A stretch of DNA of 60,428 bases, the filler included, from Stramenopiles sp. TOSAG23-6 (Eukaryota), in NCBI GenBank assembly GCA_900128565.1. It is 4 parts of 4 records of this genome, joined end to end, with 100 filler letters (N's around TTAATTAATTAA, not from the genome) between each part and the next. Parts side by side here need not be neighbours in the genome. Positions count along the whole stretch, not along the records: positions 1 to 15,045 come from LT636128.1; 3 more parts are not named here. One strand, given 5' to 3'. The notes beneath the pieces were generated by a model that was given only the letters and a program-made list of their open reading frames with translations, made no database searches and was not told the origin of the DNA. Each line of letters opens with the position of its first letter. Position 1 is the stretch's first letter. The position numbers were made by a program, and so were the translations under genes. Positions 4,585 to 49,285 of the stretch are shown in pieces.

Positions 4585-5959
4585 ATGCTCACTTCACTTA
4601 TTTTTCTTACACTTGTTGCGGCTGCATACTCTTACAATGCATGCAACCTCGATGGTCCGTATGAGACACTTTATCAACGTTTCGAGTGCTTCAAGACTAC
4701 GTTTAATAAAGTGTATAATGCTGAAGAAGAAGACCGCGCCCGTGCAGCCTTCGCTTTAAGCGATAACTTTATCAATAAAGTTAACTCCAGAGGATTAAGT
4801 TACAATCTTGCCCATAATGAATTCTCAGATATGTTAAATTCGGATTTCCTTTCCACCTACACCGGTGGTTACGTACAAAAAGGCCTACGCTATAAAACAG
4901 AGCCCTTCGTTGCAGGATATGGTAGTCCTGTTGATGAGTTGGATTGGGTTTCCAGAGGAGCTGTCACTCCTGTAAAGAACCAGGGTACTTGTGGTAGTTG
5001 TTGGACATTTGCTACTACTGGCTCGTAATTCGTATACATTATAACCAAAATCAATTATACTCAAATGATCTCATTGTTTCTTTACTTGAAATAAGTTGCT
5101 ATATTGTTCATATTATATCATCGAAGGTGCTCTATTTCGGGAAACTGGAAAACTTGAAAGTTTATCTGAGCAAATGATTGTTGACTGTGACTCTTCGGAT
5201 GGATGTCATGTATTTAAATTTCCTGAAATGAATCCTTTGTGTATTTGTCTCTCTTTCCACATTGTAATCCTAATTTTATCATAATATATTCGACATTTTT
5301 ATACATTATAGGGAGGTACATACCAACAAGCTTTTTCGTATATTCAAAGAAATGGGCTTTGTAAAGAAAGTGATGACCAATATTTGGGTAGAGATGAAAC
5401 TTGTAAGCATCAGTGTCGTCCAGAAGTTGTGCTTAAGTCGTGGACAAATGTTCCTAGTATGGACGAAGAATCCCTTAAAGTAGCTGTCTCTCATGCTCCC
5501 GTTGCTGTAGCTATTCAGGCAAATACTTATGCTTTTCAACATTACTACTCTGGTGTTTTTCGCGGTGATTGTGGTACACAACTCGATCATGCAGTTCTTA
5601 TTGTTGGGTATGGTACACTTAACGGTGTTGATTACTGGAAAGTAAAGAATTCGTGGGGAACTTCTTGGGGAGATGATGGTTATATCCTTATTGAACGTGG
5701 TACAAATAAGTGCGGTATTGCAATGGATCCTTCATTCCCTACTGGAGTTTCACTTTTTAAAGGACATTTCACCCCATGTCCAACTATGCAAAAAATACCT
5801 GGATCTAGTAGCTGGTGGTCATGTGTGTTACATAGACATGTCGTTCGTGATGGAGATGCTTGTAGATGTGCTGACGGATATCAATATAAATCAAGTGAAT
5901 GCGTTCCTTGTGGTGGTCTTGACCAGTATCAAGAATTTCCTGTAAAAACAACTGCTTGA
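4585..5959 (+). CDS. Cathepsin L-like papain (C1A) protease; exons 4585-5024, 5119-5209, 5312-5959
   Basis: Signal peptide, I29-like prodomain, [28 protein letters not shown]; splicing restores TTGSIEGA and DGCHGG. Confidence 0.9.
5025..5118 (+). other. Divergent intron, GT..AT
   Basis: Restores TGSIEGA; the nearby AG gives the wrong frame; ATATTGTT lies 10 nt before the end. Confidence 0.7.
5210..5311 (+). other. Divergent intron, GT..AG
   Basis: Restores GCHGG; ACATTTTT lies 11 nt before the end. Confidence 0.85.
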
Positions 5960-7622: not shown

Positions 7623-9538
7623 ATGTTTTATTTCAGGACAAGGCACTCTCTACAAAAACTTCATCTTATTGTCATAACTTTGGTTGCATTTTCGACGCTG
7701 ACAACTGGAATCCTCGTAGATGACGCAGAAATGACATATGGTTCCTTTCAGGGTTTTCTAACTGGAGAAGAAATATGGGAATATTTAAATCGATGGCATG
7801 CACGTCATCCAAAAATTTCATTACCTCCCAAAAGTATAGGTTTGACTTTAGAAAATCGCAAAATTCCTATAATGTGTATCGGCAGTACGTGCAGTGACCA
7901 AGCAAGCAATACTCCAGTTCCAGCAGTCCTTTTAACATCTCTGATCCATTCAAGGGAGCCCATGTCACTAGCAAGTATCATTTACTTTCTGAACATCATT
8001 GAATTACAGCAAGCTTCCGGTGATCCTAAAATATTGGCATTGTTATCTTCACGACAAATATGGATTGCTCCTCTTCTAAATCCAGATGGTTATTTTTTTA
8101 ACTTGAACCGTAAAAATAATGAATTAGGCCAACGTAAAAATCGTAACTCAAAGTGTCCATCTAATGAATCGAACGGAAATGGAGACGGTCCAGGAGTAGA
8201 TCTTAATCGTAACTTTCCCGTCTGCTTTAATTTCGATAATAAAGGTTCGCGAAACAACCTTCCCTGTGTAGAAGACTATGGTATGTTTTCATTTCAATTT
8301 CGAATTTATTTTTTTTCGTACGAAATTTTGTACCTAACGATTTTAATTTTTGAAATATTTTTCATAATGAATGTGGTGCTTCAAAATTGTCGGAACTAGA
8401 AAGTCAAGCTATGGATCGTTTTATTCGGCAACACACCGCAAAGGCCCAGAGTACACTTACTGATATAACCATTGCTTTGAACTATCATTCATATGGTCGT
8501 CTTATAAATATCCCGTATATGTGCAAACATGAGGACAAAATCACCAAAGATCTTTTTCTAACAGGATCACGAAAATTTTTCCGTGATTTTTATGAAGAGA
8601 GTTTCCCCCCTTCAAAAAGATATGGTTGGAAATGGGGGACTCCGTATGATGACGGTTTGTATACTGTGAATGGTGCGATGAGCGATTGGATGTATCATGA
8701 TCACAATATTGTTGCCATGTCTCCTGAAATGGGACCAAAACTTTTGGACAATGATTGGACGAAAGAACGTGAAATTTTAGCATTTTGGCCAAAACGTGAG
8801 GAAATTCTTCCTTTAGCCAAAGAATCTCTTCAAATGAATTTCCTTTCTGCTTGGCTTGCTGGCCCATTGCCACGTGTTAAAGACGTGTCATACACCTTCA
8901 ATATAGTTGAAAAAATATGTTCTTTTGCGACATCTTTTGTCATAGAAAATACAGGCCTTTCGGCTGTTGATAATAACAATATATATAGTTGGTTACTACC
9001 TGAAGATTCTGTATTCAAAAATACCAAAACATTCCCAAAAAAAATAGTAAGTGTATTTACTGAAATATCGAGATTATCAATGTCTGCTATTATTCATGTT
9101 AGTATGAAGGTACCTTGCAGTGAAGAGGATTCAACTTCTGTACAAACCAAATACAAATCTTTAATTGCCGTAAATACAAAATCTTTGTGTGTTGTATTTC
9201 TTTCCTCTCAATCTGTCGCTATAGATATCTCAACAACTCAAACAATTCGTAGTATAGAATTGCTACGTTCTTCTCCTCAATGTTGCAAAAAATTGACGTG
9301 TATTCTAGATAAATCTAATTATTTTGATCATATAACAGAAAATAAATATTCTGCTGGTGATGTTGTTTACACTGCTGCTGGAATTAGTTTTAGTCTTCTT
9401 GTTGTACTCTTCTGTTTGACTTTGATATGCCCAAGACGGAAGAAAGAATATGTGGTGGTACGTATGTCAATGCATGACATAGCTAGTCCGTATGAAACAC
9501 AAACTATAAGAACTTCTTCAGATAGAGTATCCGCTTAA
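7623..9538 (+). CDS. M14 zinc carboxypeptidase with C-terminal TM; exons 7623-8280, 8373-9538
   Basis: HSRE, NPDG, RKNR, GVDLNRNF, HSYG motifs. Confidence 0.9.
8281..8372 (+). mobile_element. Introner-like intron, GT..AT
   Basis: Full consensus; removal restores PCVEDYxGASKLSE (a 1-nt shift of both ends gives DYCG). Confidence 0.85.
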
Positions 9539-15045: not shown

Positions 15046-15145
15046 NNNNNNNNNNNNNNNNNNNNNNNNNNNNNNNNNNNNNNNNNNNNTTAATTAATTA
15101 ANNNNNNNNNNNNNNNNNNNNNNNNNNNNNNNNNNNNNNNNNNNN
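15046..15145. other. Artificial scaffold spacer (N-TTAATTAATTAA-N)
   Basis: Six-frame-stop linker inside an N run; flanking genes unrelated and truncated. Confidence 0.9.
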
Positions 15146-18600: not shown

Positions 18601-21600
18601 TGCCACATTAAGCGGTATCCCTCTCCTGCTTTTCTTTCTTCAAAACGAACAAGATGTTTCTTTGTATCTTTATTAAATTTCACTACATACCCAAGACGCC
18701 AACATTCATCTAACATTTGCTCATCGTGTTTTATTTCTACCATTTNTTCTTTCGTTACAGCTGCGGTTATGCCCATGTCAATCATTTCATTAGATAAAGC
18801 CTTTATCATATTGTACACTTGGTCCGCTTGTTCAAATACTTTATCCAAACAATATATTAAAATATCTATCGAAAGATCTTCGACCATCATTCTTCTTGCT
18901 GCTTTTTCTTCACGCTTCAATGCCTCTTTTTTTGCTTTCCTTTCAGCCTCTTCTAGAGCTCTTTGTTCTTTCGCTGGAATTTTCTTTTTCGTCTTTTCCT
19001 TTTTATCTTGTTTTATATCAACACGTTTCTTTGACTTCTTATCAACATTTTTTACTTTTTTACTTTTTTTTTGCTTTTCACCTTTTTTGTTTCTTCCTTT
19101 ACCTTTCTTACCTTTGCCCTTCTTTTTTTTCTTCTCTGCGTTAGCCTCACTTTTCTTTTGATTTGTCTTAATTCGTGCAAGACGAAGTTGTTCTAATCGT
19201 TTTCTTTCTGATTCTTTCTTTTGCCAAACAATCTTTCGGTTTTCATCAATTTTCAAAAATGCACGCTTGAAAGCTTTATCAAATGCTTTACCTAGCCATC
19301 GAGCAATAAAACGCTCTGCGATAACTCTTTCTTCAACACGTGGCAAATATATCCATACCTTTCGACCTACAGCGGATCTCCCAACACGAATACGCTGTGT
19401 TCCAGGTCTACTTCCATACTTGGTTATGGTACTACTTGTACTTGTTGAACGTGTACCAGGTCTTGAAAAATTGACCCGTGTAGTACCAGGTCGTGACACG
19501 TGTGCCAGGGGAGCGGCACTTGACATAACATTTTTTACATCTTTTCTATTCGATATTCGATCAGTCCTAGTTTCAATAGTGTCGCGCGTACTCGGTCTTG
19601 ATAAAATTTCATTCATATCATGTAGTGTTGTTGGGCTTACTTCAATACGTACAAAAGAACACATTGATCTACGCCAAGCCATATCTACCCAAGCCTTTTT
19701 TTCAGCTTCAACTCTACGAAGCTCTGCTCTTGTTTTGCGAAGTTTTCGGGCACGAGAACGCCCAATAAAACCACGAATAATTCTGATTATAGTTCTAGTA
19801 TGATCATATTCTTCTACTGTGTATATGGGCCTATCCCACTGGCGAGCATTGGAAGGAGGGCTAGGTTCATGTTTCTTCCAATCTTCAAATCGGTCTTTAT
19901 ACCATTCCACAAATTCCTCAAAATCCACACTACCATCATTATTCGGATCCATTTCAGAAAAGAAAATATCTAGTTTTTCATTAAACATTTTGTTACTCAT
20001 ATTATCAGCTAAACCGAGACGTTTCATTAGCTTTCCAACTTCCCAACGATCTAATTCCCCAGAATTATCTTCGTCTAAGGCATGAAAAAGCATACGAATA
20101 TGTATTGTGAAAAAATATTTCAAAAAAAATCGTTAGGTACGAAATTTCGTATGAAAACCAAAAAAACAAAAAACCAAAAAACCAAAAAACCAAAAAAAAA
20201 ATCAAATAGAAATTCATATAAAACATACACTAAGATCTCGTCTGGATGAAAACATATTTTCACCTAGTTCTGTGTTTGCATGTTTTATTTTCACCCATGT
20301 CCAAAATGGTCCAGTATTCTCTTTGTTTTCAATATAGTATAATGTTCCCATTCTATCGTCATGTATTTTGGAAAAATATTTCAAAAAAAAAAATTAATTT
20401 CGTTAGGTACAAAATTTCGTACGAAAAAAAATTCATACAAAAAAAAAAAACTAAAACATACATATGCCTCATTCCAATGCCAACGTGTAATGAAAGAAAT
20501 TTCTTCCTGAACTTTTTCTTTTCGTATTCTATCCTGATCTTTTAACCATGCCTCGTGAACTTTATCTCGTTTTTTGTCTTCTAAATAAGCTTCCTTTGCT
20601 TCTCGATCTTTTCGCTTCTTTCCCAGCATCTTCAGGACCAATCGAGCAATTCGATTTTTTAATGCTGATATAAGTTGTTGTGCGCGTTTATCATATGCAC
20701 GAATAATCTTTATAGCTTTGCCATATTCAATGGCTGCTTTTTTCTTTTCTGGAAACCAATTTTTCATGGTAAGTCCTGGATGTGCTTCTAGCCAATCTTT
20801 TATTTCAGAAATTGATTTTGGTTTATTCATTAGTTTTGCATTTTGAAGTTGTGCAACTTCAATGCATTTATAATATGTCACGTCTTGTGGTAGATCCCAC
20901 TCTTTTCGAGGAATCCCAGCTTCAGATGCACTGCGAACACCACTATCACAAAGATCAAGTATTTGTTGACTTGCCATTCGTACAAGTTTTATGTATTTAG
21001 TTCGGCGATTATCTTCATTTTGTTCTGACACTTTTTTTTGTGGCCAGTCGATAATTTCTTTTGCCCAATTTCTAGCTTCACCTGGTTCGTTGCATCGTTC
21101 AAGTGTATATGAAATTGCTGATATAGTTACATCTTTATCACCTACTGCATTAGCAAAATTATGAGCGCGAACTTCGCCTCTTGGAAATTTTGCAAGAAAA
21201 AGAAGTTTGGCTTCATCGTATGTAGCGAATGTATACCAATTGAAACGTGCGTCCTTAGCTAAGTCATCTGCGGCTGCTTCTGCGGCAGCTTCGTTCTTTG
21301 CTAATGCCCACTCTTCTGCAGCAGTTACACCTTGAAAGAACAATAAAATTTGTTCACGGTCTTTTTCGTTTTCTATTCCTACTGTTGATAATTTTTCATC
21401 ACTAAGAGTACGTAAATCGGACACTTTGCTAACAATACGACCTATATTTTTATTCAGCAATTTTGGAAGTACATGAAGCATTCCGAGGCGGCGTAAAAAT
21501 GGGGCTAATTCTAAACCACAAAGATAGTCAAAAGGATGAAAAAGAGACTTTGTATACTTATCTAATAAAAGGAGTGTCTCTCGAACACTTTTTGTTTTAA

Positions 21601-24784: not shown

Positions 24785-26397
24785 CTTGATTCGTCTTTGA
24801 TCTCCACCTCGATGGGGCTAGATCTACTATAGGATTGGAATGAACAAATTTCTTAACTTGGGGAGGTAAAGCTGCTAATCGCGTCGGCTTTGAAAATCGT
24901 CCAATACGATGACTAATATTCTTGTGATTGACTAAATGTAACCAAGGATGTAAATTTACTTTTCGGAAAGAATGTTGTGCTTGTTGTTCTTTTTTAAACT
25001 TTTCTGAATGCTTAACGCGTTTCATTGAAGGCAATAAAGAGCCAACTGAATCGCGAGACCTGACAGAGCTTGCAGATGTAGGTCGAATATCTTCATCATC
25101 ACCATTATCTGAATCATAATCGTACTTGTTTTCAAACCAAGATTGTTTAACTTCATCGGTACTTTTTAATTCAGAAGCAATAATATCTGTTACAATTTTC
25201 CCTGACATTTCATTTTGTGTTTTATGAAGAACCAACGAACGGTCTATTGTTCCTTCATCTGTTGGACCTTTATCGTTTACAACTGGAGTTTCGTTTTCAT
25301 ATATTGTGAAACATATTAAAAAAAAATCGTTAGGTACGAAATTTTTTTACGAAAAAAAAAAAAAACTAAATTTAAAATTTAGATGAAAAATTGAAAAAAC
25401 ATTAAACATACCGATGCAATTATATTTGATTTCCATGCTACTTTGACTTTAGAATGAAATTTTGCATTTTGCCTTTCTAGAGATCTAAATTTTTCTCTTT
25501 TCTTTTGTATTTTATTTGAAGTGAGGCAAGATGTCAAATTCAATTATTATTTTAGATATTGTAACTAGTGTAGTTTGTTTTGAGTTGTATGAAAAACAAA
25601 GTAAAGAAAATTTCAAAATATATTTCAAAAAATATTTCAAAAAATTTAAATAATTTTTTGTAAGTACAAAATTGCTTATGAAAAAAATATATATGATGAC
25701 GTACATTTTCAAATATTTCACTTTTTTCAGATGGATCTATTCGTAGTGGAGGTTTTGGTTGTATTTTATCATTTTTACTTTTATTTGTTTTGCGCAGTTC
25801 TCTCGCGGATGCTTTGGCTGCTTTTACGATTGGTGACATTTCATTTTTGGAGGATTTCTTTCCTATATGATGATGAGTCTGTGAAAAGTATACTATTTTT
25901 TTATCTCCATTTGAACGACGACGTAATTGGAATAATTCACTAATTGAATTTGGTATGTTTACACCTGAAATTTCATTACCTGTTGGATTCACATCCATAT
26001 GTAATAGTTTTTTATCATAATGTACACGATCTGCACTTCCTAATATAGATGAAAGTGCAAAACATGCGTTGAGATATACTTTATGATCGTCCTGAGATTT
26101 TTGTTCAGAGACAACCCTCATGAGATTTGTCAATAACGGCACGGCAGAGGTCCGGTTTCTTATCCTCTCTCTCATATATTTACTTTTCCCTGACAATCTA
26201 CTAAGTGCCCGTGCAGCTAAACCACGAATCCACAAAACTTCACCACTATCAAGTGCTGAAAAAATGCTATTAAGATCATTTTCGTTAATATGGGGCGGGC
26301 CATCTTCACTTCCAATATCAGCTAACCAATGGCGAAACTTTCTTCCCCTTCCTGAGGGAGCTTCTGAGACAGGACGAGAACGAATCATCTGTTTCAT
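24723..26397 (-). CDS. ARM-like hypothetical protein with two introns and an apparent frameshift; possibly the 5' part of the IQ gene
   Basis: ARM-like helices (AARALSRLS, NACFALSSI); frame break near 25545; overlaps the IQ ORF in another frame. Confidence 0.45.
25299..25411 (-). mobile_element. Introner-like intron, GT..AT
   Basis: Consensus present; joins IIAS to ENETP in frame. Confidence 0.75.
25584..25704 (-). mobile_element. Degenerate introner-like intron, GT..AC (3' end uncertain)
   Basis: GTACGT donor, TTTTGTACTTAC core, duplicated TTTTGAAATAT block. Confidence 0.55.
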
Positions 26398-28349: not shown

Positions 28350-28916
28350 ATGACATTCCAACCACCATTCATGCTACACGCAGATCTTGCAGCGGCACTT
28401 ATTTTAACTCATCATATATTTGTACAGTTGCTGATCGAAATAGTATTTCGTCAAGGGTTTCGAAAGATTTCCCCTGCCGAGTTTCAGAAGTTGAAACAAG
28501 GGAAATATTATAAACGATTCATCGCAGCATGGGAAAATGAAGGCAATAATGCGGCCGTGCTTGTTTCATGTCTCGCTTATCTCTCTCTTAAAGGACTTCC
28601 TTCTCCCTGGTGCTCTACCCTGGCTTTCTCTGGACAAGTATCTTACTTTTGGTTACGTGCGATTTTTGGAGATGCAGGGGATGGGGGCTTTCATCCTCCT
28701 ATTTATATTCCTGGTTCTTTGATGCGTTTCTTCGCGTTAGTCGCAATTGCACACACGATGTATTTTGACTCACCGCAAATTACCTTAAAGCCAATTTATA
28801 TAAGCGATATTGGACAGCAAATGAGTTATTGTACGTGTACCTTTTGGACCTGGCTGGCGGGCACATACCACGAGCCACCGCCAGAACTGTTAAATGAATT
28901 GCCAGATAGTGAGTAA
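28350..28916 (+). CDS. Small multi-pass membrane protein (possibly MAPEG-like)
   Basis: 188-aa ORF with about 4 hydrophobic helices. Confidence 0.55.
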   Translation: MTFQPPFMLHADLAAALILTHHIFVQLLIEIVFRQGFRKISPAEFQKLKQGKYYKRFIAAWENEGNNAAVLVSCLAYLSLKGLPSPWCSTLAFSGQVSYFWLRAIFGDAGDGGFHPPIYIPGSLMRFFALVAIAHTMYFDSPQITLKPIYISDIGQQMSYCTCTFWTWLAGTYHEPPPELLNELPDSE

Positions 28917-28972
28917 TATGTCAGAGGCTATATTTTCTTCAATATATTTGTATATAAAACAATAATTTATTT

Positions 28973-30189
28973 TTACATCATAATACAGGCTTTACTCGCA
29001 ATTTTACTCTTCAATATCAATTCTCTATTTTTGCGTTCTTCAATAAAAGCTTTGTTTCCATCATTTTTTGTTTCAATGACATTTTCAGAATCAGCTTCCT
29101 CGTTAGCATTAGGAAAACTTTCTAAAGTTCCACCTTCAAATTCCGAAATTCTAACATCCCGACTCGGCGATTTCAATGATGACAAAAGAAATTGGGCGGC
29201 ATTTTCGTCACCATCAGCAACAACAACCGTCAACCGTACATCTTCACTATTTTTCTTCATCTTCCTCAAGAAAAATTCAGTAGCACTTGCTTTTGCTTTA
29301 TCTATAAAATTTGCTTCATTATCATCAACACTATCAATGTTTTCCAAATCTGTTTCAGATTTTTCCAGTAAACCGTATAATTCTGTTTCAGCTTCTTTTA
29401 TTCGTCGATCACTTTCCATTTTTTGCTGTTTTGCAGCTTCTGCTAACCTTCTCCTTCTATATCTTGCTTCTGCAGATGTACCAGACTTTAATTCTAAAGG
29501 AGGTAGCTTGCGTTCACTTCTTCTGCTATCCACATTAATATTTTCTAAACTATTCTTTGTCGACCCCTTTNNNNNNNNNNNNNNNNNNNNNNNNNNNNNN
29601 NNNNNNNNNNNNNNNNNNNNNNNNNNNNNNNNNNNNNNNNNNNNNNNNNNNNNNNNNNNNNNNNNNNNNNNNNNNNNNNNNNNNNNNNNNNNNNNNNNNN
29701 NNNNNNNNNNNNNNNNCAAGACTCTGCACCACGTGATAAAAGGATTCGAACAATAGGAACACTCCCAGAGAAGCAAGCAGCATGTAGAGGAGTATTTAAT
29801 GCTGTATTTTTTTTACAAAGTCCATGGGCCGTTGTGAATAAAAGTATACATTGAGTAGCAAAAAGATGACCTTTAAAACATGCTGCATGGAGAGGAGTAT
29901 TTCCGGCTGTATTTACATTATCCAACATGCCCAAAACTACCGTTTTTTGAGCAGGGCGAAGTGTATATAAAGTGACATCGGATCCATCCAATTGAATTTG
30001 AGCAGGTGTCACTTTTAATTTTTTTGTTGCAGATGGAGCAGCAGCAGAAATTGCAGTAGCAAGAAGTAATTTAATAATTCGAGTATGACCTCTAAAACTA
30101 CCACAATGAAGAGGACTATTTCCCTTTAAATTGCGTTTGTTTAAATCAACTCCAGCTTTGATAATTAGGGCGGCAACATCAGTATGTCC
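28973..30189 (-). CDS. Ankyrin-repeat protein with C-terminal CaaX (CIMM); 5' truncated, internal N gap
   Basis: GNTPLHAAC, NTPLHAAC and GNSPLH repeats; ends KACIMM-stop. Confidence 0.75.
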
Positions 30190-30289
30190 NNNNNNNNNNN
30201 NNNNNNNNNNNNNNNNNNNNNNNNNNNNNNNNNTTAATTAATTAANNNNNNNNNNNNNNNNNNNNNNNNNNNNNNNNNNNNNNNNNNNN
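30190..30289. other. Artificial scaffold spacer
   Basis: N-TTAATTAATTAA-N. Confidence 0.9.
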
Positions 30290-30344: not shown

Positions 30345-31141
30345 TCTTTGTTGTTGTATTTGGTATACTATCAAACTGTCTATGACAAATATAAACAGCA
30401 CTAGCGCCCCCCACAGAGAAAATTTCTCTTGAAATGTCAATGGATGACGGTCCAGCGCCTAATACAACAATTCGTTTACCTTTATGTATTTTGGAAAAAT
30501 ATTTCAAAAAAAATCTAAAAAAATTGTTAGGTACAAATTTTCGTATGAAAAATAAATTCGAAATTGAAAAAAAAAATAAAACATACATATTCTTTAGGTG
30601 TGTCATATGCAATTGAGTGCTTTACAGTAAAGGTGCAAGTATCTCTTCCAGGGATTGACGGTTCGTAGGGCACTTGAAAGTGACCATTCGCAATAACAAT
30701 TGCGTCAAACACCTCAGTGTTCTCCTCTCCTTCTTGTGACTTTGTTTTAACTCTCCAACAAGTTGAGTCGTTTGGACAACTCTCTTTTCGTGCAGTGCTA
30801 ACATTGGTTACACGTGTACCAAGTGAGATACACGACAATAAGGAATGTGTTTTTGCGTAAGATTTAAGGTAGTTAGCAACGATGTTGTGACCAACGAAAC
30901 TTTTTGTACACTCTGGAAAAGGACTCCCCATGAAAGCCATTATCTCCTTTGGCAGATTCGTCTGTAAATTTTGATACATTGCTTGACCAGCAGAAGAGCC
31001 GTGGTTCCATACTCCACCTACACTTTGCTCTGCTTCGAAACACTTTACACAAACTCCTGCTTCACGAAGACGTCGTACAGCAGAAAGGCCTGCAGCTCCC
31101 GCGCCAATGACTGCCACATTTGTAGAGGTGATCTTTTTCAT
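30345..31141 (-). CDS. Flavin-containing monooxygenase, 3' truncated; exons 31141-30587, 30483-30345
   Basis: GAGAAG, GGVW, IANGHF, HSIAY; splicing gives PKEY|KGKRIVVLGAGPS. Confidence 0.9.
30484..30586 (-). mobile_element. Introner-like intron, GT..AT (AT duplicated)
   Basis: Restores the context of the NADPH-binding motif. Confidence 0.9.
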
Positions 31142-34722: not shown

Positions 34723-37700
34723 TTATAGTTTATTTACAGGAGGTACACCTAACAAATGCAAACCAGTTTGAAGTGTAACTAATGTATCTCTGCACAACGC
34801 TAATCTAAAATCTTGCCGGGAATGATTAATGATTCGTTCATTGCTATAAAAACTATGAAATAAAGTAGCTAAACGAAACAAATAATTGCACAGTAAATGT
34901 GGGGTTAGTTCAGCGACAACTGCATCAATCACTTCAGGAAACTGCGATATAGCGAGAGCAACTTGCCTTTCTCGCATATTTAGATGATCGACAGATTTCG
35001 TGTCATTGGTTGTTGTATCGAAGAAGTTGGATACGTCGCCACTGTGTTCACTACGGGCAAATATGGAATTTATTCTTGCACATGCATACAATAATGATAC
35101 TGACGTGTTTCCTTTACTCTCCATCATCCGCGTTACATCCGCTGCATAATCACTTTGTCGATGATGAGATAATTCAAAGTAACGTAAAGCGCCTTGCATT
35201 AATGCATCTGCTGATTCCATAACAAGTTGGTTCGAATTGCATTCATTCATGTCATCCTTCTGAATTGACCGTTCTACAGTGTCTAAAGCAACAGAATGAA
35301 CTTCAGACAAAAGCGACGAGAGAGTAGGTACATTTCCATCTCTAGAACTCAATGTATTTTGGAAAAATATTTCAAAAAATATTTCGTTAGGTACAAAATT
35401 TCGTACGAAAAAAAAATTCAAATTTTCAAAAAAAATAAACATACATTTTCGATCATCTTTCCCTTTAACAAGACCGAACGAAACATGTTCTAATGAAGGA
35501 AGACCAAATTTGTTTGGTGAAGCTTCTAACCAACCAGCTAGCTTAGCAACATGAAATAAATTTGAAAAGTGCTTTTTTTGACTAGAATCGACAACGTATA
35601 TGTATTTTGGAAAAATATTTCAAAAACAAAAACTAAAATTTGTTAGGTACAAAATTTCGGAACNAAAAAAAAATCNAANTTNAAAAAAAAAGAAAACGGA
35701 CATGATTCTATCGTATGCAGTTTGGTTGATTAGAGTATTGTTATTAGGAATGCTTGTACGGTCGATTTCACTGCCTAAACCTAAACGGTACGAATTGTGA
35801 AAAAATATTTAAAGAAAAAAAACGTTAGGTACGAAATTTCGTATGAAAAAAAAATTAAATTGAAATTCATATAAAAAATACACCTTAAAGCAGCTAGATC
35901 AGTTGTTGCATATAGATGAGTAGTATCACTCTTTTCAATTATCATTGGTGGCTGTTCTTCATCTTTTCTACCCTCAGTACTATTTTTACAATCTTTATTA
36001 TTCATTTTCCGGTGTTTTTTTTTTCTTCTATTATTATCTAATTTATTTGTTTCATTTGCAAAATAATCTCCAGCAATTACTAGAGCGGCATCCTGATAAG
36101 ATAACAAACCAGAAGTATTCAAATCAGCAATCATCTCAGAGATTAATGGAGCATAAACAGATTCACCCAGTTCCTCCGCAACAACATGTATTTTGGAAAA
36201 ATATTTCAAAAAAAAATCGTTAGGTATAAAATTTCATACGAAAAATAAATTCGAAATTGAAAAAAAATAAAACATACATCTAGTCTACTAAAAATATCAT
36301 GAAATCCTTTACGACTTGCAGTACACAACTGTAACCATGAGTGTCGGATACTTCCTACTCTATTGTCATCGTATTTTGAGCTGTTTTGAAGAGCGCGGAG
36401 AACTTTGGAAACTTTTTCCTTAAATATGGGATCATTATCCGCACGTGTATTTTGGAAAAATATTTCAAAAAAAAATCGTTAGGTACAAAATTTCGTATGA
36501 AAAAAAAAATTCGAATTTGAAAAAAAAATAAAACATATGTTCTTTTGATGCAGTATAAAAGGAACTCAATTCGGCTGGAGTAGGTAAAATTGTTTCTGTC
36601 TCAGTCATTTGATTTTTCATGAATAAAGGTTGCCTATCTTCAGGAAGATCATGAATAAACGCAACTACCATTGCAATTGGAGTACCCCAGTCACCAACAT
36701 GACTTACCCGAGTGACTTTATTCCCGGAAAACTCTAGAATTCGTGCAAGTGTATCACCAATGACAGATGACCGTAAGTGCCCGACGTGCAATTCTTTACT
36801 CATATTGGGTGATGCAAAATCTAGTAAAATATTTTTAGAGTTTTGGTCAATCGGTTCAACAACTTTTTGTTTCAAAGACATTTCCGGATTCCTAATTTTC
36901 AAAAGCATTGCAATTGCTTCATCTTTTTCTTTTTTCACCTCATCACTAATATCCAATGATCGTAATTGCTTTAACTTACTTTTTATTTTATTTACCTTCT
37001 CGACATTTTCATGCTCATACGGGCAATGTCGACACTCAGAACCACAACAAGTACCACGATTTTTATGAAAGAAACTTGTCAACACTTGAAAACCAGTCAT
37101 TGGATCTATATACGAACTTTCTTTACTATTACACGCATTTTCGTGCAATAATTGAATTTCTGGGGACAGCAAAGCTTTCTTTTGTGTTCTAGTCGTGTCA
37201 GGTACTCTGGGTCTGGTAGGAATCATTTTACTTACATTATTCGAACTCCATAATGAGAAAGAAACTTTCGATTTATATGAAAGCAACCATGGATCATCTA
37301 TGTATATATTAATAAATCCAGGCCCAGAGACTTCTACCTTTGATATACACGGATCCGCACATTGTCTTATGTTTGTAGCGAGTTCATTTGCTATGTCCTG
37401 AGGTCGACGTTTTTCTAATGAAGCTAATCCAAGAGCAGTGTTGCACTGATAATCCGCATCAGTATTTCCATTTGCAAGTGATACTCTAGAGGCATGAATA
37501 TCAGTATCAGCAGAACTAACACGTCGTAACACACCAACTCCACCCGGAGAAGATGAATTGAGTGCTTGTTTGACTATAGAGCGGAGGTGTGACAGGATAG
37601 ACGTTGGAAGTTGTATTGATTTGCAACTACTTGAGCTTTCCGTTTTGATGCACCTACGCTGACGAAATAAAATATGCTTTACCCTAATTCGACTAACATG

Positions 37701-37724
37701 AGACAACGAACTACTCAGAAACAT
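34723..37724 (-). CDS. RARS: Arginyl-tRNA synthetase (organellar-type N-terminus); exons 37724-36539, 36444-36278, 36185-35882, 35789-35702, 35599-35445, 35351-34723
   Basis: SPNMSKELHVGHLRS (HIGH), HVGDWG, GES-Y, YATTDLAALRYR, IYVVD..QKKHF, KLSSRDG, YACARI, DALR domain. Confidence 0.93.
35352..35444 (-). mobile_element. Introner-like intron, GT..AT (AT duplicated)
   Basis: Restores KLSSRDG. Confidence 0.9.
35600..35701 (-). mobile_element. Introner-like intron, GT..AT (AT duplicated)
   Basis: Restores DRIIYVVD. Confidence 0.9.
35790..35881 (-). mobile_element. Introner-like intron, GT..GT (GT duplicated)
   Basis: Restores DLAALRYRL. Confidence 0.9.
36186..36277 (-). mobile_element. Introner-like intron, GT..AT (AT duplicated)
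   Basis: Restores RLDV..GESVY. Confidence 0.9.
36445..36538 (-). mobile_element. Introner-like intron, AT..AC (AC duplicated)
   Basis: ATATGT donor; restores SKERADND. Confidence 0.85.
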
Positions 37725-38032
37725 TCTAGTCAATGCTACAATGCTTTGCGAAATAGAATACTAATAGCGACGATGCCGACCTAGCTACTTCTAGCAGTGC
37801 AGGTGTACTCTTACGTGTAGGTTAGTAAAATTAGCTAGGCTAGTCGTAGTACTAGTTTCTGTTGTGACACAAACACGCGTGATGATTGCAACAAGTCAGT
37901 TCGAAACTCTTCTTCCTCTAGAAGTACTGCATATAGGTACTACTAGCTAATAGTTATAGATTATCGCTACTATATTTTGACCCCCTTGGACTACTTACAT
38001 TCATTCAATATAGATACAGGTGTTGCATAGTT

Positions 38033-39263
38033 ATGAGAATATTTGCCCGTTCTAATTTGGTTTGGCTCTTCCGTTGTTCACGTCAAAATAGGTGCAAACC
38101 TCGTATGTTACTATCCAGTAATGTTCGAATGATTTCTTCTACTGCAAGTGTTTTGCTCCGATCGAGCAAGGGTGAGGATGGATTCGGTCGTTTGGCACCG
38201 TTATTAGATGGCGTTAAGAAAGACCCCAAACCGGAAGATCTTGGATCTGCTGTAAGTGACTTTCCAAAAGTACTTGAAGAAGTTGCTGCGCAAGGTCGAG
38301 CAAAAATGGATGCCTTTAAGTTTAGTCTTGAAGCACTTAAAGTAATGAAAGAGCAGGATGATATTGACGACGATACTTTGGAATACTGTGCTGCCATTGC
38401 AGGCAGTGCAACAGCTGGGCGATGGTATGAATTTTGTGGTGGTGAGAATGGTGAAAATGATGGCTTATTGGATCTTATGATGACTCATGACGGTATAATG
38501 CCAGATGCTTTTACGGCTTCGTGTGCAATTGAGGCACACTATCGTGGTGGCGAAGCTTCATTGGGTTTGGACTTATTTTGGGATATTCTTTCTTTTGAAG
38601 CACCTGCAGAAGATCAATTCGGCTATAAAAATATTCTGAAGAAGTTTGAAACACAATTAAAGTTCTCTGCATCCGAAGAAGAAAAAATGCGAATAGAAAA
38701 AAAAACGAGTGTAGACAATCAACAATTATTGAAAAAAACAGTGTTGTTAGATCTGGAAAGTGCAAAAAATCTATTGAAATATCACAATCCTGAACATATA
38801 TGCGTATACAATTCTGCGATTAATAGCTGTAGTGCATTGCAGAATATTTCAGATGATGAAAGGGCGTCAAATGTATTAGATATCTTAAAGGAAATGTTTC
38901 GAAATGGTGTTCGCCCAAACGAACAAACGAATGTACCTAACCCTAACCCTAATCATGAATTTCAAATTTATTTTTTTTGTACCAATTTTCGTACCTAACA
39001 AAAATATCAAGTTTTTGAAATATTTTTTCACAATATATCTATCGTTGAAGAATTGTTTTGAATCAAAATCAGACAATAATGTAAGCCAAGTAGAAGCTGA
39101 GGCATTGCTTTCAAATATCGTTGATGTTCATTTAGATGCTGTCGATATGGTCTCAAATATGGAATCAAATAGGGAATATTATGAAACGAAAGAAGAAATT
39201 AATAAATCCGAAGACGAAAGGATCTCTCCCCGCTGGTGGCATTCGCTCTACAAATCATCCTAA
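38033..39263 (+). CDS. PPR-like protein, likely mitochondrial; exons 38033-38932, 39039-39263
   Basis: GIMPDAFT; VYNSAINSC..LKEMFRNGVRPNEQT PPR-like motifs. Confidence 0.7.
38933..39038 (+). mobile_element. Introner-like intron, GT..AT, with (CCCTAA)n at its 5' end
   Basis: Core consensus present; frame restored. Confidence 0.75.
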
Positions 39264-40478: not shown

Positions 40479-42594
40479 ATGGATATTTTTACGTTATCGC
40501 TTACTATAATTAAGTCTATTCCTAGGCGTTGTAATGAGCAGGTCTTTGTTTTCACAAACAAACGAGTTCCAGAGTCCATCAGAAAGGTAGCCTGGATGTA
40601 TCGCTTTGGTTACGTATTGACTCTTGTTCTTCTCACATGGTTAGTATTTGAGGTACCACACTCAAATCTTTGGGATACTAATAGAAATGACTTGCGGTGG
40701 TTTATCTTATTTATATCACTTTCACCTATCTCATACTTTTCTGTTCAAGCATCAGACCCAGGGTTTCTTTCTGCAGATATTCTCTCTGCAGTAGGGTTAC
40801 TTCCTGGTAGTGGCGAAAACGAGCGACTAGTATCAAATGATACTGGTATTGCGAATATTAAGATGAATCAATCTCAAGGTCAAGAAGTAGCAGATTCCAA
40901 GTTCGTTGATATTGAAATGGTCGGCTCAGCTATTGATGCGAGTAATCTAGAAACCAAAACAACAAAAGACGGTAAAAGAATTGAAATCGAGGACAATATT
41001 TCTTCAAAAAAACGCAGACTTGAAGCACTTAAAATGAAAAGAAATTTAATAGAAGAGAAAAAGAGTATTGTTGATCAAGAGATTCGAGACATTGGTAATG
41101 AAGAAATATATAGTAAAAGAAGCAGAAATAAGAATAGATCAGTAAAGCCTTGGAGACAAACTGTCTCAGAGAATACTTGTACGTTTTTACAATTTGAATT
41201 TTTACCAATATTTTTTTCATAGTAAATTTTGTACCTAACAATTTTTTACAAAAAAAAATATTTGTTTTCACACTACTTGGGACTCCAGCACAGATAGCGA
41301 TGACGGACTTGGTTCAGATATTGAGGAAGCTCTTAGTAGACAAGGTTTAGATAAACTTTTAGTGTGTACTAAAAATATTAAAAATACTAAAAACGAAGAA
41401 AAAAATTCCTCGATGTGTCAACCCGTTACCGGGTTCCAACCCCACAGAAATACTAAAAATGAAGAAAAAAATTCCTCGATGTGTCAAGGAAACAATCGTT
41501 TGGCGAATAATGATAAATTTCTCCGAAAAGTTAAGATAGGTCGTAAAAAAAAACATAGAATTGAAATGCCATTGCTTCGAGCACGTTGGTGTTATCATAG
41601 CGAACGATTAGTAGCAAAGTATGACCATGTAGGTTCTCATACTGAATTTCAAATTGTTTTTTCGTACGAAATTTTGTACCTAACAAATTTTAGTTTTTTT
41701 TTTTTAAATATTTTTTCATAGTGCATCATTGCTTTGTTTTAGGGACAACTATTGGAGGTCGAAATCATTTTCGATTTTGGTTGTTTCTATTTATTCATTT
41801 GATAACAGTAATGTATGCAATTATTTTAATTAATAGTGGATTTCGAGAAAATGTACTTGGCCAAAGTTTGTTTTCATCATTCATTTTCATTTTTTTTACT
41901 ATGAAAATTTTGTACCTAACGAATTTAAAAAAAAAAGAAAAATATCTTTTCACAATACAAGTTGGTTAAGTACAAACGGTCTTGCCCTTACAGCTTTAAT
42001 AATCATATCATTATTCTTTCTTCCAATTTGTGGACTTTTTGTCTTTCATTCTTTTCTTGCACTGACAAATTCCACGACATATGAAATAAGTCGAGGATGT
42101 TCATCAAAGAGAATTCGTAGGAGACGTGCTAGAGATTTTCGAAAACGAAGGCGTAAAGTCGGTTTAGATGACGGATATCTTCAGGATGATACATACACTA
42201 GTAGAAAAGATAAATTCCATTTCCAACCCTGTGACTTGCCGTACTCAAAAGGTCCCATTACAAATTGTCGTTTGTTTTGTTGTTTCAACCAATGTAGTGG
42301 AGATCCAGTAACTACACAAGCGCATTTAGCTGCATGTATGTTTTATTTTTTTTTCAATTTCGATTTTTTTTATAGTGCATTTTGTACCTAATAATTTTTT
42401 TTAGATTTTTTTTTGAAATATTTTTCCAAAATACATACAAACGACTTAAATTAATGAAGACTACGGGTCAATCATCTGTGAATGTTTCTATTGAATGGTT
42501 GCCTCATATATGGACTGCCCCGATACCATTTGACCGTGATACTGATGATATTTCAAGTAATTTATGGGAGAATAAATATTGGCGTTGTTGTTAA
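40479..42594 (+). CDS. DHHC palmitoyltransferase; exons 40479-41178, 41279-41628, 41727-41865, 41961-42335, 42437-42594
   Basis: SDPG; splicing restores KYDHHCFVLGTTIG..N; NSTTYE motif; start codon uncertain. Confidence 0.9.
41179..41278 (+). mobile_element. Introner-like intron, GT..TT (TT duplicated)
   Basis: Consensus present; frame restored. Confidence 0.8.
41629..41726 (+). mobile_element. Introner-like intron, GT..AT, inside the DH|HC motif
   Basis: Removal restores the catalytic DHHC. Confidence 0.93.
41866..41960 (+). mobile_element. Introner-like intron, GT..AA (AA duplicated)
   Basis: Consensus present; frame restored. Confidence 0.85.
42336..42436 (+). mobile_element. Introner-like intron, GT..AT (AT duplicated)
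   Basis: Consensus present; frame restored. Confidence 0.85.
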
Positions 42595-42788: not shown

Positions 42789-45325
42789 TTAAAACTTTTC
42801 TAGTTGAGTAGTTACATCATCGGTAGGTAGAGACAACGATTCAGTGCACCAAAGAGCTTGTGCGGCACGACAGACTCATGTATTAAGAAAAATATTTTAA
42901 ATTTTAAATTCGTTAGATACGAAATTTTTATGGAAAACAAAATCTCGAAATTAAAATGAAAATGTACTGTCTGTACCATTATCAACAACACCACCAACTT
43001 CAGGAGTAAACCTAAATGGGGAATTACTACATTGTATTGAATTCATTGCACGGTCACTCATCGGGGTAGTGAGAGTAGTTTGATGAACTTTTAAAGGGGT
43101 CTGCGGAGGCAAATGAGATACATAATTACAATCAATCGAAGAAACCGGAAATTTACCAATATTTTGATCGAGAAATACATTACTTGTATTTCCAATGGAT
43201 TTCGGGTCGTTATTGTTTTGATTTAGATTAGCATTAACATTCATGTTCATATTCATCATTAAATGCATATTCATTTGCATATTATTCAAATCAATACCAG
43301 AAAAATCAGATCCGGCGACTGCGGCTGCGATGGAATCCAAACGATCGGGTTTATTGGGACTTTTAAATGGACTTAATAATTTCTCAAATCCAAGCAAGTT
43401 ATCCATCGTAAGCATTGGCATTTTAATGGGAGATATATTTGTGGTAGTATTATTGTTGTTCATAAAATCTGATGGTAATAGCTGATTTGGATTTAACTTT
43501 TGCATTTTATGTGGAGATTTCCAAGGACTTTCACAAGGAAGTTTACGTTTGTTTCCATGTCCTAAAACTACACTATGGGCGGCAATACAAGCATTAGCTG
43601 CAAAGGAAAGCCAATCAATATAAGGTGTACATGACTGAGGCGAAATGTTGTCAATATGTGTGCTTGCCGATGCCATTTCAACAAGCTGATCTAAGAGAGT
43701 TGCCAGAGTAGATTCAAGAAGTGTCACTGAATTTGGCACAAGATTATGAAGAGCGACAAAGCAAGCCACAACATTTGGATTCACTCGAACAGAAGTAGTA
43801 TTTTTTGTATTCTTTGTCTGGGGAATAAATTCAATATCCGATGAATGAATGGTAATGCGTGCTGATCGTATGCATTCTGTATTTAGTTTTGTATTTTTTT
43901 CCATAATATTGATATAAAGTGAAAATAAAGTTTGACCTCGACGATAAAATTCACTTGCTAGAATATCCATCCATGGTTTAGATTCACTTGTTGAGGTTTC
44001 GCTGGGCTTATTTTGTGATATATTTGAAAATTCTTTAATAGATTTATAACCGTAACCATTGATAGCAAGGTCGAGACGATGTCGAGTCATTCGCAATGCA
44101 TTCGCTAGTTCAGCTTCTTCAGCATCTGATGGTACAACTTTCGACGATTTCGACACCTGGTATGATTTAAGCCACGATAATAAAAGTTTCTCGCTCTGGC
44201 TAGCAATTTTAGGCAGCGTGTTTGTTGTACTTTCCTCAAATGACGCATTCAAAGTAGTCCAAGAACAAAATGCACCTGTTATACGTGACGGTCTAAAATC
44301 TTCTTCGTTTCCACCACCTACACCATTTCTAATAGTTTTGCTAATATTATTTGTAAGAGAAGCAAGCCAATTGCCACCACTGTGTTGACCCAAACCGTCA
44401 ATACGTGGAGCCATTAGAGGATGACCGGTGTTGATAGGGGAAATACACGAAAGATGAGATAATTGTGGATCAATTTGATATGGCTTCGGTGGCGGTGTAA
44501 CAAGTGTTTTTTTACTATCGAATTGTTTCGAACCAGGAACACTAAAGAATAAGGGTAAAGTTCCATTCAAAGACGTTTGTTGCGCATTTATGTTCTCAGT
44601 AAATAAAGGATTCATAGCCATTGGTATTATGGTCTGTTTTCGTGCAATTTCAGCCGGGGGTTCTGAATCTTTTCCATTCATCAGAACTTTACCTAAAAAC
44701 TCAGAAAGAGAACGGGGACCATTATTCATGACAACTTTCCCCTTGTTAGCATCTACCACGGCATCAGCAGGATCTGTTCCATTTTGGGCAGTAGATTCAT
44801 TAAATCTTTTGTTAGTGTTTACAACAGCCGAATAAGCCTTTTTGCTTTTTTTAGCCTTAGGTTTAGGTGGTTTTACCTTTGCGACATTATTTCTCGAGGG
44901 TACTAAAAGACCGAGGGAAATTGCTTCATCATATAGTGGCCTCCAAAGGCGTTTCCTTGCATTTGTAAACCAATTATTAAGCTGCTTAATTGTAATCGAT
45001 GCCTCTGCACGGAGTTCAGCTTTTTGATTATCAGTTGGGTATGGAGATTCGAAATGCTTCGCATCAAGCATCCATTTTTTTAGCACTCGAACAGCTGATG
45101 CTGGGAGCCGAGGATTTTTTCGCCGGCTAGTAGTGGCAGCAGTTGGTTGGTTTCCACCAGAATTTAATTGCTTTTGAACATTTTTGATTTTCTTCTTCGT
45201 CTTTGCACTCTTCGCTTTTGTCACGTATTGTGAAAAAATATTTCAAAAAAAATTCGTTAGGTACGAAATTTCGTATGAAACCAAAAAAAAAAAAATTAAA
45301 TTAGAAATTCATATAAAACATACAT
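42789..45325 (-). CDS. TALE-class (KN) homeobox protein; exons 45325-45324, 45222-42968, 42877-42789
   Basis: LKKWM..SPYPT..QLNNWFTNARKR. Confidence 0.88.
42878..42967 (-). mobile_element. Introner-like intron, GT..AT
   Basis: Core CGTATCTAAC; an open terminal exon follows. Confidence 0.75.
45223..45323 (-). mobile_element. Introner-like intron, GT..GT, splitting an AT|G codon
   Basis: Consensus present; splicing creates an ATG in frame with the ORF. Confidence 0.75.
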
Positions 45326-45425
45326 NNNNNNNNNNNNNNNNNNNNNNNNNNNNNNNNNNNNNNNNNNNNTTAATTAATTAANNNNNNNNNNNNNNNNNNN
45401 NNNNNNNNNNNNNNNNNNNNNNNNN
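45326..45425. other. Artificial scaffold spacer
   Basis: N-TTAATTAATTAA-N. Confidence 0.9.
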
Positions 45426-45801
45426 TTGAACTTGTATAATAAATTGCGCAAGTATTTGTAGTATTACCAAAAGGTTTTACCCAATATTGAAGCGAACACG
45501 AGCTGGCTCTAAAGTGTTCTTTGAGTGTTCTTTAATTAATCGATCCGCGATTACTATGACACGAAAAAACCTGTTTTGGACGAATGAAAATATTGTTGTT
45601 TATTTAGTAATGAAATCTCAAATCATGAAAATACTTTTGAAGTAGTCATATGTCATCATCAATATTGTTACTACACTTTGTTCGCTGCTTCATTTCTTTG
45701 AAAGTAGCTTCAAGCTTAATCTTGTCAATATCAGTCAGTCGCTGTACACAGAAATTTATATAGTATATTTATTATCATGATCTGTTGAATGTTTTCCAAA
45801 A

Positions 45802-48624: not shown

Positions 48625-48655
<31 letters not shown>

Positions 48656-49094: not shown

Positions 49095-49119
49095 GGACGT
49101 TTTATTTTTTTTTTGTATG

Positions 49120-49154
<35 letters not shown>

Positions 49155-49186
49155 TTTTTTTCCCAAAATTTTTTTTTTTTTTTTTT

Positions 49187-49221
<35 letters not shown>

Positions 49222-49285
49222 TACCAAATTTTGTACCTAATAGAATTTTTTTTTTTTTTTTGAAAATATTTTTTTTACAATACAT
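49095..49285 (+). mobile_element. Double-length, T-rich introner-like segment (possible chimera of two copies)
   Basis: GGACGT-like donor, long poly-T, GTACCTAAT..ACAT end. Confidence 0.5.

Follow-up and report, generated by a model that had tools for sequence, protein, structure and literature searches.

Spliceosomes are thought to need an acceptor AG for the second catalytic step. Introners, known from numerous aquatic protists including Micromonas, Aureococcus, Chrysochromulina and Symbiodinium, are near-identical short introns in sense orientation with target-site duplications (PMC11282704); that of Chrysochromulina carries its own 5′ splice site and co-opts a 3′ site (PMC9860276), and the sections of these papers available to us describe introner families with GY-AG boundaries (PMC9860276, PMC11282704). 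In a 60,428 nucleotide (nt)-long stretch of DNA from Stramenopiles sp. TOSAG23-6 (assembly GCA_900128565.1; four parts joined end to end, hereafter the window), we found an introner-like intron family whose inferred 3′ ends are almost all non-AG and which carries a conserved box (consensus GAAATATTTTT) about 11 nt before the cut. Here we describe this family and weigh whether the box counts out the position of the cut or forms part of an inherited 3′ module.

Introns with non-AG ends have been described on a large scale in other lineages. According to the parts of the respective papers available to us, introns of the larvacean Fritillaria borealis derive from miniature inverted-repeat transposable elements (MITEs), bear target duplications, most commonly end in AG-AC or AG-AT and involve a modified major spliceosome (PMC11282704), with diverged U2AF paralogues proposed to read the non-canonical 3′ signals (10.1101/2025.08.15.670264). 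Repeated introns of Amoebophrya (Syndiniales) have 3-5-nt direct repeats across their boundaries and no fixed terminal dinucleotides, its introners contain 8-20-nt inverted repeats forming hairpins, and U1 was not detected (PMC7789003). Euglenid nonconventional introns have non-canonical ends, duplication-like junction repeats and a likely transposon origin; they have no polypyrimidine tract, and positions +4 to +6 pair with positions -8 to -6 (PMC11282704). As these sources portray them, the known large-scale exceptions also show abnormal 5′ ends or lack U1 or the pyrimidine tract. In an intron family with textbook donor and branch site, whose sole departure is a free acceptor, the selection of a 3′ site in the absence of AG can be considered in isolation, and a conserved box at a near-fixed distance offers a concrete, mutable candidate signal.

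A family of sense introns with canonical donor and branch site

Repeat finding together with a motif scan indicated one intron-sized family on both strands of the window, with ~37 copies in 60 kb; 35 of these were chosen by eye among 55 matches to the branch motif, and two more came from the repeat table. Family members are 90-190 nt long, all in sense orientation relative to the genes, and share a layout of GTATGTTTT, TTTTGTACCTAAC, a U-run, GAAATATTTTT and YCAMAATAC plus 2 nt. In full, the consensus reads GTATGTTTT(A)T-run ... CAATTTCGAATTT ... T-run CGTACGAAATTTTGTACCTAAC ... T-run GAAATATTTTT (CC or TC)A(A or C)AATAC + 2 nt, with block identities to the consensus of 86-94%. Copy statistics below cover the 31 copies with both ends readable, which are related to each other and come from this one 60-kb window; the other copies are cut short by N gaps or by the edges of the window, except for one near 25630 whose 3′ end is unclear. 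All 31 copies have long open reading frames (ORFs) on both sides on the same strand.

The 5′ consensus, GTATGT, is a U1-type donor, with G at +1 in 30 and T at +2 in 30 of the 31 copies. TACCTAAC represents a near-perfect U2-type branch site, conserved at 89-100% and followed by U-runs, and is predicted to be used as such. As judged by the features of a U2-type intron, the family has a canonical donor and, followed by a pyrimidine tract, a branch site of the YURAY/UACUAAC type expected 15-50 nt from the 3′ end, and lacks the 3′ AG; as judged by those of an introner, it has many copies, a sense orientation that restores the frame, and target-site duplication. Two family-specific patterns, searched for further copies in collections of viral and metagenome contigs, returned one viral and four metagenome loci, then 0; these five loci were rejected as family members, being chance matches without family features.

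Homology and reading frames place the cuts at non-AG ends

Cuts were inferred from reading frames and homology. The frame test took the donor from the family alignment and the upstream phase from the longest open frame ending at that donor, and then determined the 3′ positions from which the longest downstream frame carries on. As frames place a cut only modulo 3, homology was used as a second check. The base following the family tail (...AATAC+NN) was in frame in 30 of the 31 copies, and the base after it in the remaining one (47705-47832). Seven junctions were gapless relative to homologues, five in an arginyl-tRNA synthetase (ArgRS) gene (34726-37760, minus strand; protein P0001; 18 homologues) and two in a gene for a cathepsin-L-like protease (12 homologues), and splicing at these junctions restored the motifs RKLSSR, DLAALRYR, DRIIYVVD, TGSIEGA and GCHGG. 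The introns concerned are listed here, with a slash marking the junction in the protein and the distance from box end to cut given as, for example, +11.

35352-35444, minus strand: ArgRS intron, consensus copy; GTATGT...GAAATATTTTTCCAAAATACAT, ends AT; box at 35363-35373, +11; DDRK/LSSRDGN, the three nearest homologues reading RKLSSR
35600-35701, minus strand: ArgRS intron; GTCCGT...ATACAT, box +11; YDRI/IYVVDSSQ, gapless against 18 homologues
35790-35881, minus strand: ArgRS intron; GTATTT...CACAATTCGT, ends GT, as does the upstream exon; TDLAALR/YRL, gapless
36186-36277, minus strand: ArgRS intron; GTATGT...ATACAT, box +11; FSRLD/VVAEELGES, gapless
36445-36538, minus strand: ArgRS intron with A at +1, the sole copy among the 31 without G there; ATATGT...ATACAC, ends AC; ASKE/RADND, gapless
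5025-5118, plus strand: cathepsin-L-like intron 1; GTAATT...TATTATAT, ends AT, without TACCTAAC (best branch-block match only 8/13); box-like ATATTGTT at 5101-5108, 10 nt before the cut; TTGS/IEGA, gapless against 12 homologues
5210-5311, plus strand: cathepsin-L-like intron 2; GTATTT...ATTATAG, ends AG; ACATTTTT at 5293-5300, +11; DGCH/GG, gapless against 12 homologues

Six of these homology-fixed junctions, in ArgRS and cathepsin, are non-AG. Across the 31 copies, the last two intron bases are AT (22), GT (3), AC (2), AA (2), TT (1) and AG (1). An AG between branch site and cut occurs in 11 of the 31, mostly 11-14 nt past the branch A, and does not preserve the frame, and four copies have no in-frame, stop-free GT/GC-AG alternative in the window tested. 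AG clearly does not define these acceptors. Four introns ending in AG were seen, namely the copy at 46497-46607, cathepsin intron 2, an intron in a TBC gene (below) and a partial copy at 15206 (considered without a frame check), all with the G at the family cut position. This suggests that an AG arising there is tolerated, or even preferred. Outside ArgRS and cathepsin, the exact cut is deduced from the family alignment.

46497-46607, plus strand: sole AG-ending copy among the 31; CCAAAAAACAG, with G exactly at the family cut position

Terminal repeats resemble a target duplication

In 20 of the 31 copies, the intron closes with the same two or more bases (2-6) as the upstream exon; 5000 permutations gave a mean of 11.4 such copies and at most 18. 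Of the nine copies not ending in AT, six match their own flank (AC, AC, GT, GT, AA and TT, the TT lying within a 5-nt repeat). These terminal repeats look like a target duplication. In AT-flanked copies, the readings GT..AT, TG..CA and AT..AC yield one and the same mRNA. We kept GT at the 5′ end because G1 and T2 are each present in 30/31 copies, because shifting the boundary leaves other copies with a mixture of 5′ dinucleotides, and because it creates a stop codon (gac taa) in the copy at 8281-8372.

A longer direct repeat of ~14 nt (cgataaGTTGGTTA) lies on both flanks of a TRAPPC13 intron, 57784-57874, at 57776-57800 and 57875-57900 (plus strand); a cut placed 12 nt further downstream would likewise keep the frame. 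The repeat may be a long target duplication or reflect a slipped boundary.

Conservation of the box equals that of the branch site

The motif RATATTTTT occurs 55 times when both strands are counted, as opposed to 8.8 expected occurrences and a maximum of 18 in 100 shuffles. On the sense strand, 26 of these lie upstream of an inferred cut, at 10 nt (3), 11 nt (21), 12 nt (1) or 13 nt (1); the rest are found outside the listed introns (19), antisense to an intron (7) or elsewhere within introns (3). Per-column conservation, derived from a MAFFT alignment of the 31 copies, is 89-99% in the box AAATATTTTT and 67-99%, mostly 89-99%, in the branch block AAATTTTGTACCTAAC. It is 57-93% in the first six intron bases that make up the 5′ splice site, 45-93% in the last eleven bases, 35-77% in an internal CGTACG and 32-86% in the stretch past the branch site. 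Copies whose tail retains 4-7 of 10 consensus bases still hold 8-11 of the 11 in the box. The box, ATATTTTT, is the best-kept part of the 3′ end and as conserved as the branch site.

An initial reading of the window from its letters (the sequence-only reading) had stated that the box is kept in four diverged introns, and its coordinates, boxes and spacings (+10, +11, +11 and +11) hold for all four: the two cathepsin introns above and the following two.

50935-51036, minus strand: TBC/RabGAP intron; GTGTGT..GTAG, ends CATACCTGTAG (AG); ATATTTTT ends +11; CCCTAA repeats at the 5′ end and near the branch region
58237-58345, plus strand: TRAPPC13 intron, a family copy with a decayed tail; GTACGT..ATAT, tail GTATACAATAT, ends AT; TCGATATTTTT at 58324-58334 (GATATTTTT), +11

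The frame test of the TRAPPC13 intron favoured its cut with 178 vs 15 downstream codons, and the flanking exons match the middle and C-terminal domains of TRAPPC13. Among seven donors considered for the TBC intron, the frame stays open only with 51036 (and with the non-GT position 51033), giving ...VSVAM/LLHVRDFLLERDY; the sequence read past donor 51036 is a plausible TBC-like continuation, judged without an alignment of homologues. In the three introns outside the family (two cathepsin, one TBC), a box-like 11-mer 9-13 nt before the cut has an identity of 8/11, 8/11 and 9/11, with P values against shuffled introns of 0.057, 0.051 and, for the TBC intron, 0.003.

Spacing between box and cut

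With the box defined as the best ungapped match to GAAATATTTTT and ties broken towards 11, 23 of the 31 copies have 11 nt between box end and cut, four have 10 nt, two have 12 nt and two have 13 nt (standard deviation (SD) 0.67), and the branch A lies 31-53 nt from the cut. The sequence-only reading is borne out on both counts, having placed the box about 11 nt before the cut in most copies and let the branch-to-end spacing vary with T-run length; neither an absence of fixed distance nor a decay of the box as fast as elsewhere, which it had named as outcomes that would speak against it, was found (box conservation, 89-99%). Its further step, that the box rather than an AG positions the cut, stands only in part. 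AG is not the determinant (1/31), and counting from the box fails in nine of the ten copies in which the count and the family alignment disagree.

The position 11 nt past the box coincides with the tail-aligned end in 21 of 31 copies and differs from it by 1-2 nt in ten. Of the two ends, the tail-aligned one is in frame in nine of these discordant copies, and box+11 in one (47705-47832). Discordance arises from the U-run that ends the box, which varies from 5 to 8 U (8281-8372, 25299-25411, 41179-41278, 49095-49285 and 50685-50817), or from a one-base insertion in the tail (49924-50042 and 47705-47832). In every case the cut remains at the extreme 3′ end. Since changes in U-run or tail length leave the cut there, the box is no nucleotide-precise ruler. 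Three of the nine, 49095-49285, 50685-50817 and 60091-60204, are less clear-cut, their donor being atypical or their box ambiguous. A ruler starting from the 3′ edge of the pyrimidine run was also tried and rejected: its distance is 9 nt in 23/31 copies with an SD of 1.24, which is no better and sensitive to substitutions. Informative copies are the following.

8281-8372, plus strand: copy in an M14 carboxypeptidase gene; U-run one base shorter, box +10 (GAAATATTTTTCATAATGAAT); tail-aligned end in frame and box+11 out (387 vs 28 downstream codons)
41179-41278, plus strand: copy in a DHHC-type gene; longer run (ATATTTGTTTTC), 13 nt from box to cut, ends CTT; 5 nt (TACTT) repeat the upstream exon end
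50685-50817, minus strand: copy in the TBC gene; 8 U after ATA, 13 nt from box to cut; QAQQM/YTLIQ open; donor GTAAAT 11 nt upstream of the family-aligned position
47705-47832, plus strand: copy with box+11 in frame and the tail-aligned end out (TTTTTCACAATATCGT); run one U shorter, tail one base longer

The exons around 8281-8372 match carboxypeptidases, with matches to solved structures too remote to fix the junction residue.

A proposed mobile 3′ module and its alternatives

In the reading we favour, to which we give a probability of about 0.55, a mobile introner carries a 3′ module with the box at its conserved centre; the spacing to the cut is inherited, and the box aids AG-independent recognition rather than serving as a ruler. 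The module would comprise ~21 nt, (G)AAATATTTTT followed by YCAMAATAC + 2 nt, with the box as its core, and would belong to a small mobile intron inserted in sense orientation into nearly every gene of the fragment. Donor (GTATGT), extended branch site (TTTTGTACCTAAC), U-run and 3′ module would all come with this element, which would be removed, we infer by the spliceosome, together with one copy of a short target duplication, usually of 2 nt and most often AT. The intron would then terminate in ...AAUAC+NN, and its 3′ consensus would be A-Y-A-U in place of Y-A-G. A constant spacing is to be expected of copies descended from a single mobile element, such that the near-constant 11 nt from box to cut would be a heritage of the element, while the last few intron bases, and not a count from the box, would decide which phosphodiester is cut at the extreme 3′ end. 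Most likely, the box would be the downstream edge of a pyrimidine-tract platform read by a U2AF-like factor. Because it is kept like the branch site and survives where the tail or the 5′ half has decayed, the box is probably a working part of this AG-independent 3′ recognition.

Several points weigh against this reading. The cuts rest on frames and seven homology-checked junctions; 27 of the 31 copies have a chance in-frame GT/GC-AG pair nearby, usually with a downstream AG that deletes codons, and outside ArgRS and cathepsin frames alone leave such alternatives standing. The duplication makes the boundary ambiguous by up to 2 nt. Tail-aligned ends were set by eye after the frame marks had been seen and then served to build the very matrix that recovers them, so the 9-to-1 outcome is not fully blind. 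The box could be conserved because the copies are young or because mobilisation, rather than splicing, requires it, and subfamily structure confounds the per-column values. Finally, the non-family introns number only three and were chosen post hoc in the sequence-only reading.

If the box were a ruler, a protein or small nuclear RNA (snRNA) bound to (A/G)AUAUUUUU would place the second catalytic step ~11 nt downstream, whatever the bases at the cut. The tight spacing (SD 0.67; 23/31 at 11 nt) within introns whose branch-to-cut distance spans 31-53 nt, the varying terminal dinucleotide, the persistence of the box in decayed copies and in three non-family introns, and the G at the family cut position of all four AG-ending introns (again with 15206 lacking a frame check) would all fit, as would the copy 47705-47832, in which a shorter U-run is paired with a longer tail and 11 nt are held. 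However, box+11 is out of frame in nine of ten discordant copies, six of which combine a clear family GT donor with a strong frame (8281-8372, 25299-25411, 41179-41278, 47375-47501, 49924-50042 and 42878-42967, the last with the weakest frame of the six), common descent explains the spacing equally well, and a search of the window with Rfam at gathering thresholds for an snRNA or other RNA partner gave 0 matches. A nucleotide-precise count from the box is contradicted, and the ruler, partly supported overall, is improbable in that form; a looser model of a bound factor with local choice may apply. It is tentatively conceivable that an extended module, made up of the U-run, GAAAUAUUUUU and the A-rich tail of 9-10 nt, specifies the 3′ site without AG and is read by a diverged U2AF-like factor or an snRNA. 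If this were true, any dinucleotide supplied by the target could serve as acceptor, letting one introner colonise almost every gene in this stramenopile lineage, and the box would be a hitherto undescribed signal that splicing requires as much as it does the branch site.

A box without any role in splicing, kept by the youth of the copies or by the mobilisation machinery while other features set the cut, is unlikely. Many copies are indeed near-identical over the 3′ module (nine share a 21-mer score of 29.0 bits), the target-duplication signature is present, and insertions are strongly clustered, with nine in the gene at 45781-49529; yet the same copies are far more diverged elsewhere (CGTACG 35-77%, positions past the branch site 32-73%), the box lies outside any inverted terminal repeat, the 5′ end sharing only GTAT...TTTCAA with the reverse-complemented 3′ end, and a box-like element persists in three introns without remaining consensus. 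Pairing between the intron ends, in which 5′ GUAU joins AUAC (-6 to -3) to bring the splice sites together and the cut falls 2 nt past the helix, draws on a G1 that pairs with -3 in 32 and a U2 that pairs with -4 in 31 of 34 introns, on two-sided changes at 4/-6 (GTAA/TTAC in 50685-50817, GTAA/TTAT in cathepsin intron 1) and on minimum-free-energy folds of consensus copies that close with a 4-bp helix. But pair 3/-5 is broken in 9/34 and pair 4/-6 in 15/34, a pyrimidine at -3 is an ordinary YAG feature too, folds are weak (z <= -1.9 in only 4/30 copies, many near 0 relative to shuffles), and the 5′ GUAUGU, which pairs with U1 and U6, must remain available for both, making this idea, which has been put forward for euglenid nonconventional introns and for Amoebophrya introners, quite improbable here. 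A U12-like mode, with the branch point in or beside the box and a short fixed distance to the 3′ site, would make many copies AT..AC if shifted by 2 nt. U12-type introns are defined by a 5′ site RTATCCTT and a branch motif TCCTTAAC ~10-15 nt from the 3′ end, and their 3′ sites are distance-dependent and tolerant of terminal bases. AT-flanked copies can be read as /ATGTATG...AATAC/, and the sole A+1 copy (36445-36538) ends in C. Against this, the donor is GTATGT, not RTATCCTT, with GT (84%, 100%) and not CC at positions 5-6, the only conserved branch-like motif, TACCTAAC, is found 31-53 nt upstream of the cut, and shifting the boundary puts a stop codon into 8281-8372 and yields 5′ dinucleotides AC, GT, AA or TT elsewhere. 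U12-type identity was rejected, as neither the 5′ site nor the branch motif of that class was found, and a mechanism of this kind is highly improbable. The inherited 3′ module remains the reading we prefer.

As an isolated observation, 36445-36538 (minus strand) combines A1 and C-1 as in AT-AC introns; it is a single case, and two of the 31 copies end in C.

Further family copies and sequence features of the introns

A representative copy and further copies of the same layout, each put to the frame test, are as follows.

20100-20228, minus strand: representative family copy (coordinates and frame test)
20361-20461: family copy
25299-25411: family copy
30484-30586: family copy
38933-39038: family copy
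41629-41726: family copy
41866-41960: family copy
42336-42436: family copy
42878-42967: family copy
46238-46336: family copy
47375-47501: family copy
47915-48030: family copy
48215-48322: family copy
48577-48722: family copy
48811-48909: family copy
49095-49285: family copy
49924-50042: family copy
51172-51288: family copy
57784-57874: family copy
60091-60204: family copy

Directly upstream of the branch site, the family consensus carries CGTACGAAATTT(T/C)GTAC, a near-perfect palindrome (e.g. 36218-36240, minus strand) that forms a hairpin of 6 bp, at the end of which lies the branch motif; the variable T/C pairs with G as G-U or G-C. Telomere-like CCCTAACCCTAA repeats directly follow the donor of three introns (GTnnnTAACCCTAACCCTAAT):

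38933-38955, plus strand: telomere-like repeats
60180-60204, minus strand: telomere-like repeats
51010-51036, minus strand: telomere-like repeats

They recur near the branch region of the TBC intron, at about 50965-50985 (minus strand), and the repeat holds CTAAC, a branch-site core. Similar motifs, AACCCTAACCCTAG or GGGTTAGGGTTAG, are seen upstream of genes near 52500, 53400 and 54130 (minus strand). A possible non-family intron of 80 nt at 28909-28988 (plus strand) reads GTGAGT...CATAATACAG with an ATACAG end; the frame of its acceptor is ambiguous, several frames being open and no Pfam match being present there.

Genes, gene models and assembly of the window

The window is AT-rich (GC content 26-41% per 2-kb window), and long ORFs crowd both of its strands, as in a gene-dense eukaryotic fragment. 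Genes recognised in it encode a CLC channel, a TALE homeobox protein, ArgRS, a TBC/RabGAP protein, TRAPPC13, a DHHC protein, a mitochondrial carrier, a flavin monooxygenase, the cathepsin-L-like protease and the M14 carboxypeptidase. In the gene at 45781-49529 (plus strand), whose only recognised domain is a C-terminal MYND finger, 3.7 kb contain nine family introns, and T-runs within these reach 32 nt. A frame change lies near 24770 (minus strand), between two long ORFs of one large gene.

Among proteins, the ArgRS ORF best matches a public gene model whose exons are identical to its own and whose source label suggests a MAST-3-type marine stramenopile (MAST). This model reads into one family intron, 35790-35881 (RCIFYMNFNLIFFSYEIS), and elsewhere uses shifted GT..AG pairs, resulting in RKCISR instead of RKLSSR at intron 35352-35444. 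Proteomes predicted for the lineage are thus probably damaged wherever the intron family sits. The same model also omits an in-frame stretch of 124 codons that matches DUF5522 in Pfam. Apart from this public model and homologues of <=65% identity, no transcript-derived protein identical to spliced ArgRS or cathepsin was found. Seven metatranscriptome runs from seawater or plankton share <=0.20 of sampled words with the window, from which nothing follows on expression or habitat.

N gaps at 15046-15145, 30190-30289 and 45326-45425 each consist of 44 N, TTAATTAATTAA and another 44 N, and each adjoins a family intron or a long T-run; the intron repeat family probably breaks the assembly. An 8-nt-period 'repeat' (D1) returned by repeat finding is an artefact of N runs.

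Comparison with known systems

In tolerating non-AG 3′ ends and in a 3′ site that appears set by distance, the family is reminiscent of U12-type (AT-AC) introns, from which it differs in having neither the defining 5′ and branch motifs nor the short branch-to-3′ distance. For MAST lineages, the literature searched contained no report of introners or non-canonical introns, although supplements may hold intron tables; of two MAST-3 genome papers, one uses 'intron' in methods only, and the passages covered of the other contain neither 'intron' nor 'splice'.

With introners, as far as these are described in the sources cited above, the family shares near-identical sense copies in genes, the target duplication, and a division of splice signals between those carried by the element and those coming from the duplication. 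In contrast to them, the duplicated 3′ bases are usually AT here and the end is non-AG in 30/31 copies, which implies AG-independent use of the 3′ site. Euglenid nonconventional introns, to judge from the same partial accounts, resemble the family in their non-canonical ends, duplication-like junction repeats and likely transposon origin; the present family has a U-run, a branch site and a GT donor, and of its four end pairs two are well kept and two often broken. The likeness to Amoebophrya lies in repeated introns, boundary repeats and variable terminal dinucleotides; in contrast to the long inverted repeats described there, end complementarity amounts to 2-4 bp and folds are weak, and the donor is strongly U1-type. 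Fritillaria comes close in its transposon-derived introns, target duplication and non-canonical end. Yet in that larvacean, according to the sections available, non-GT 5′ ends dominate, while in this protist GT is retained in 30/31 copies and only the 3′ end departs. Transposon-derived non-canonical introns are already known from Fritillaria and Amoebophrya; from these, the present family is set apart by an acceptor that is free while donor and branch site are of textbook form.

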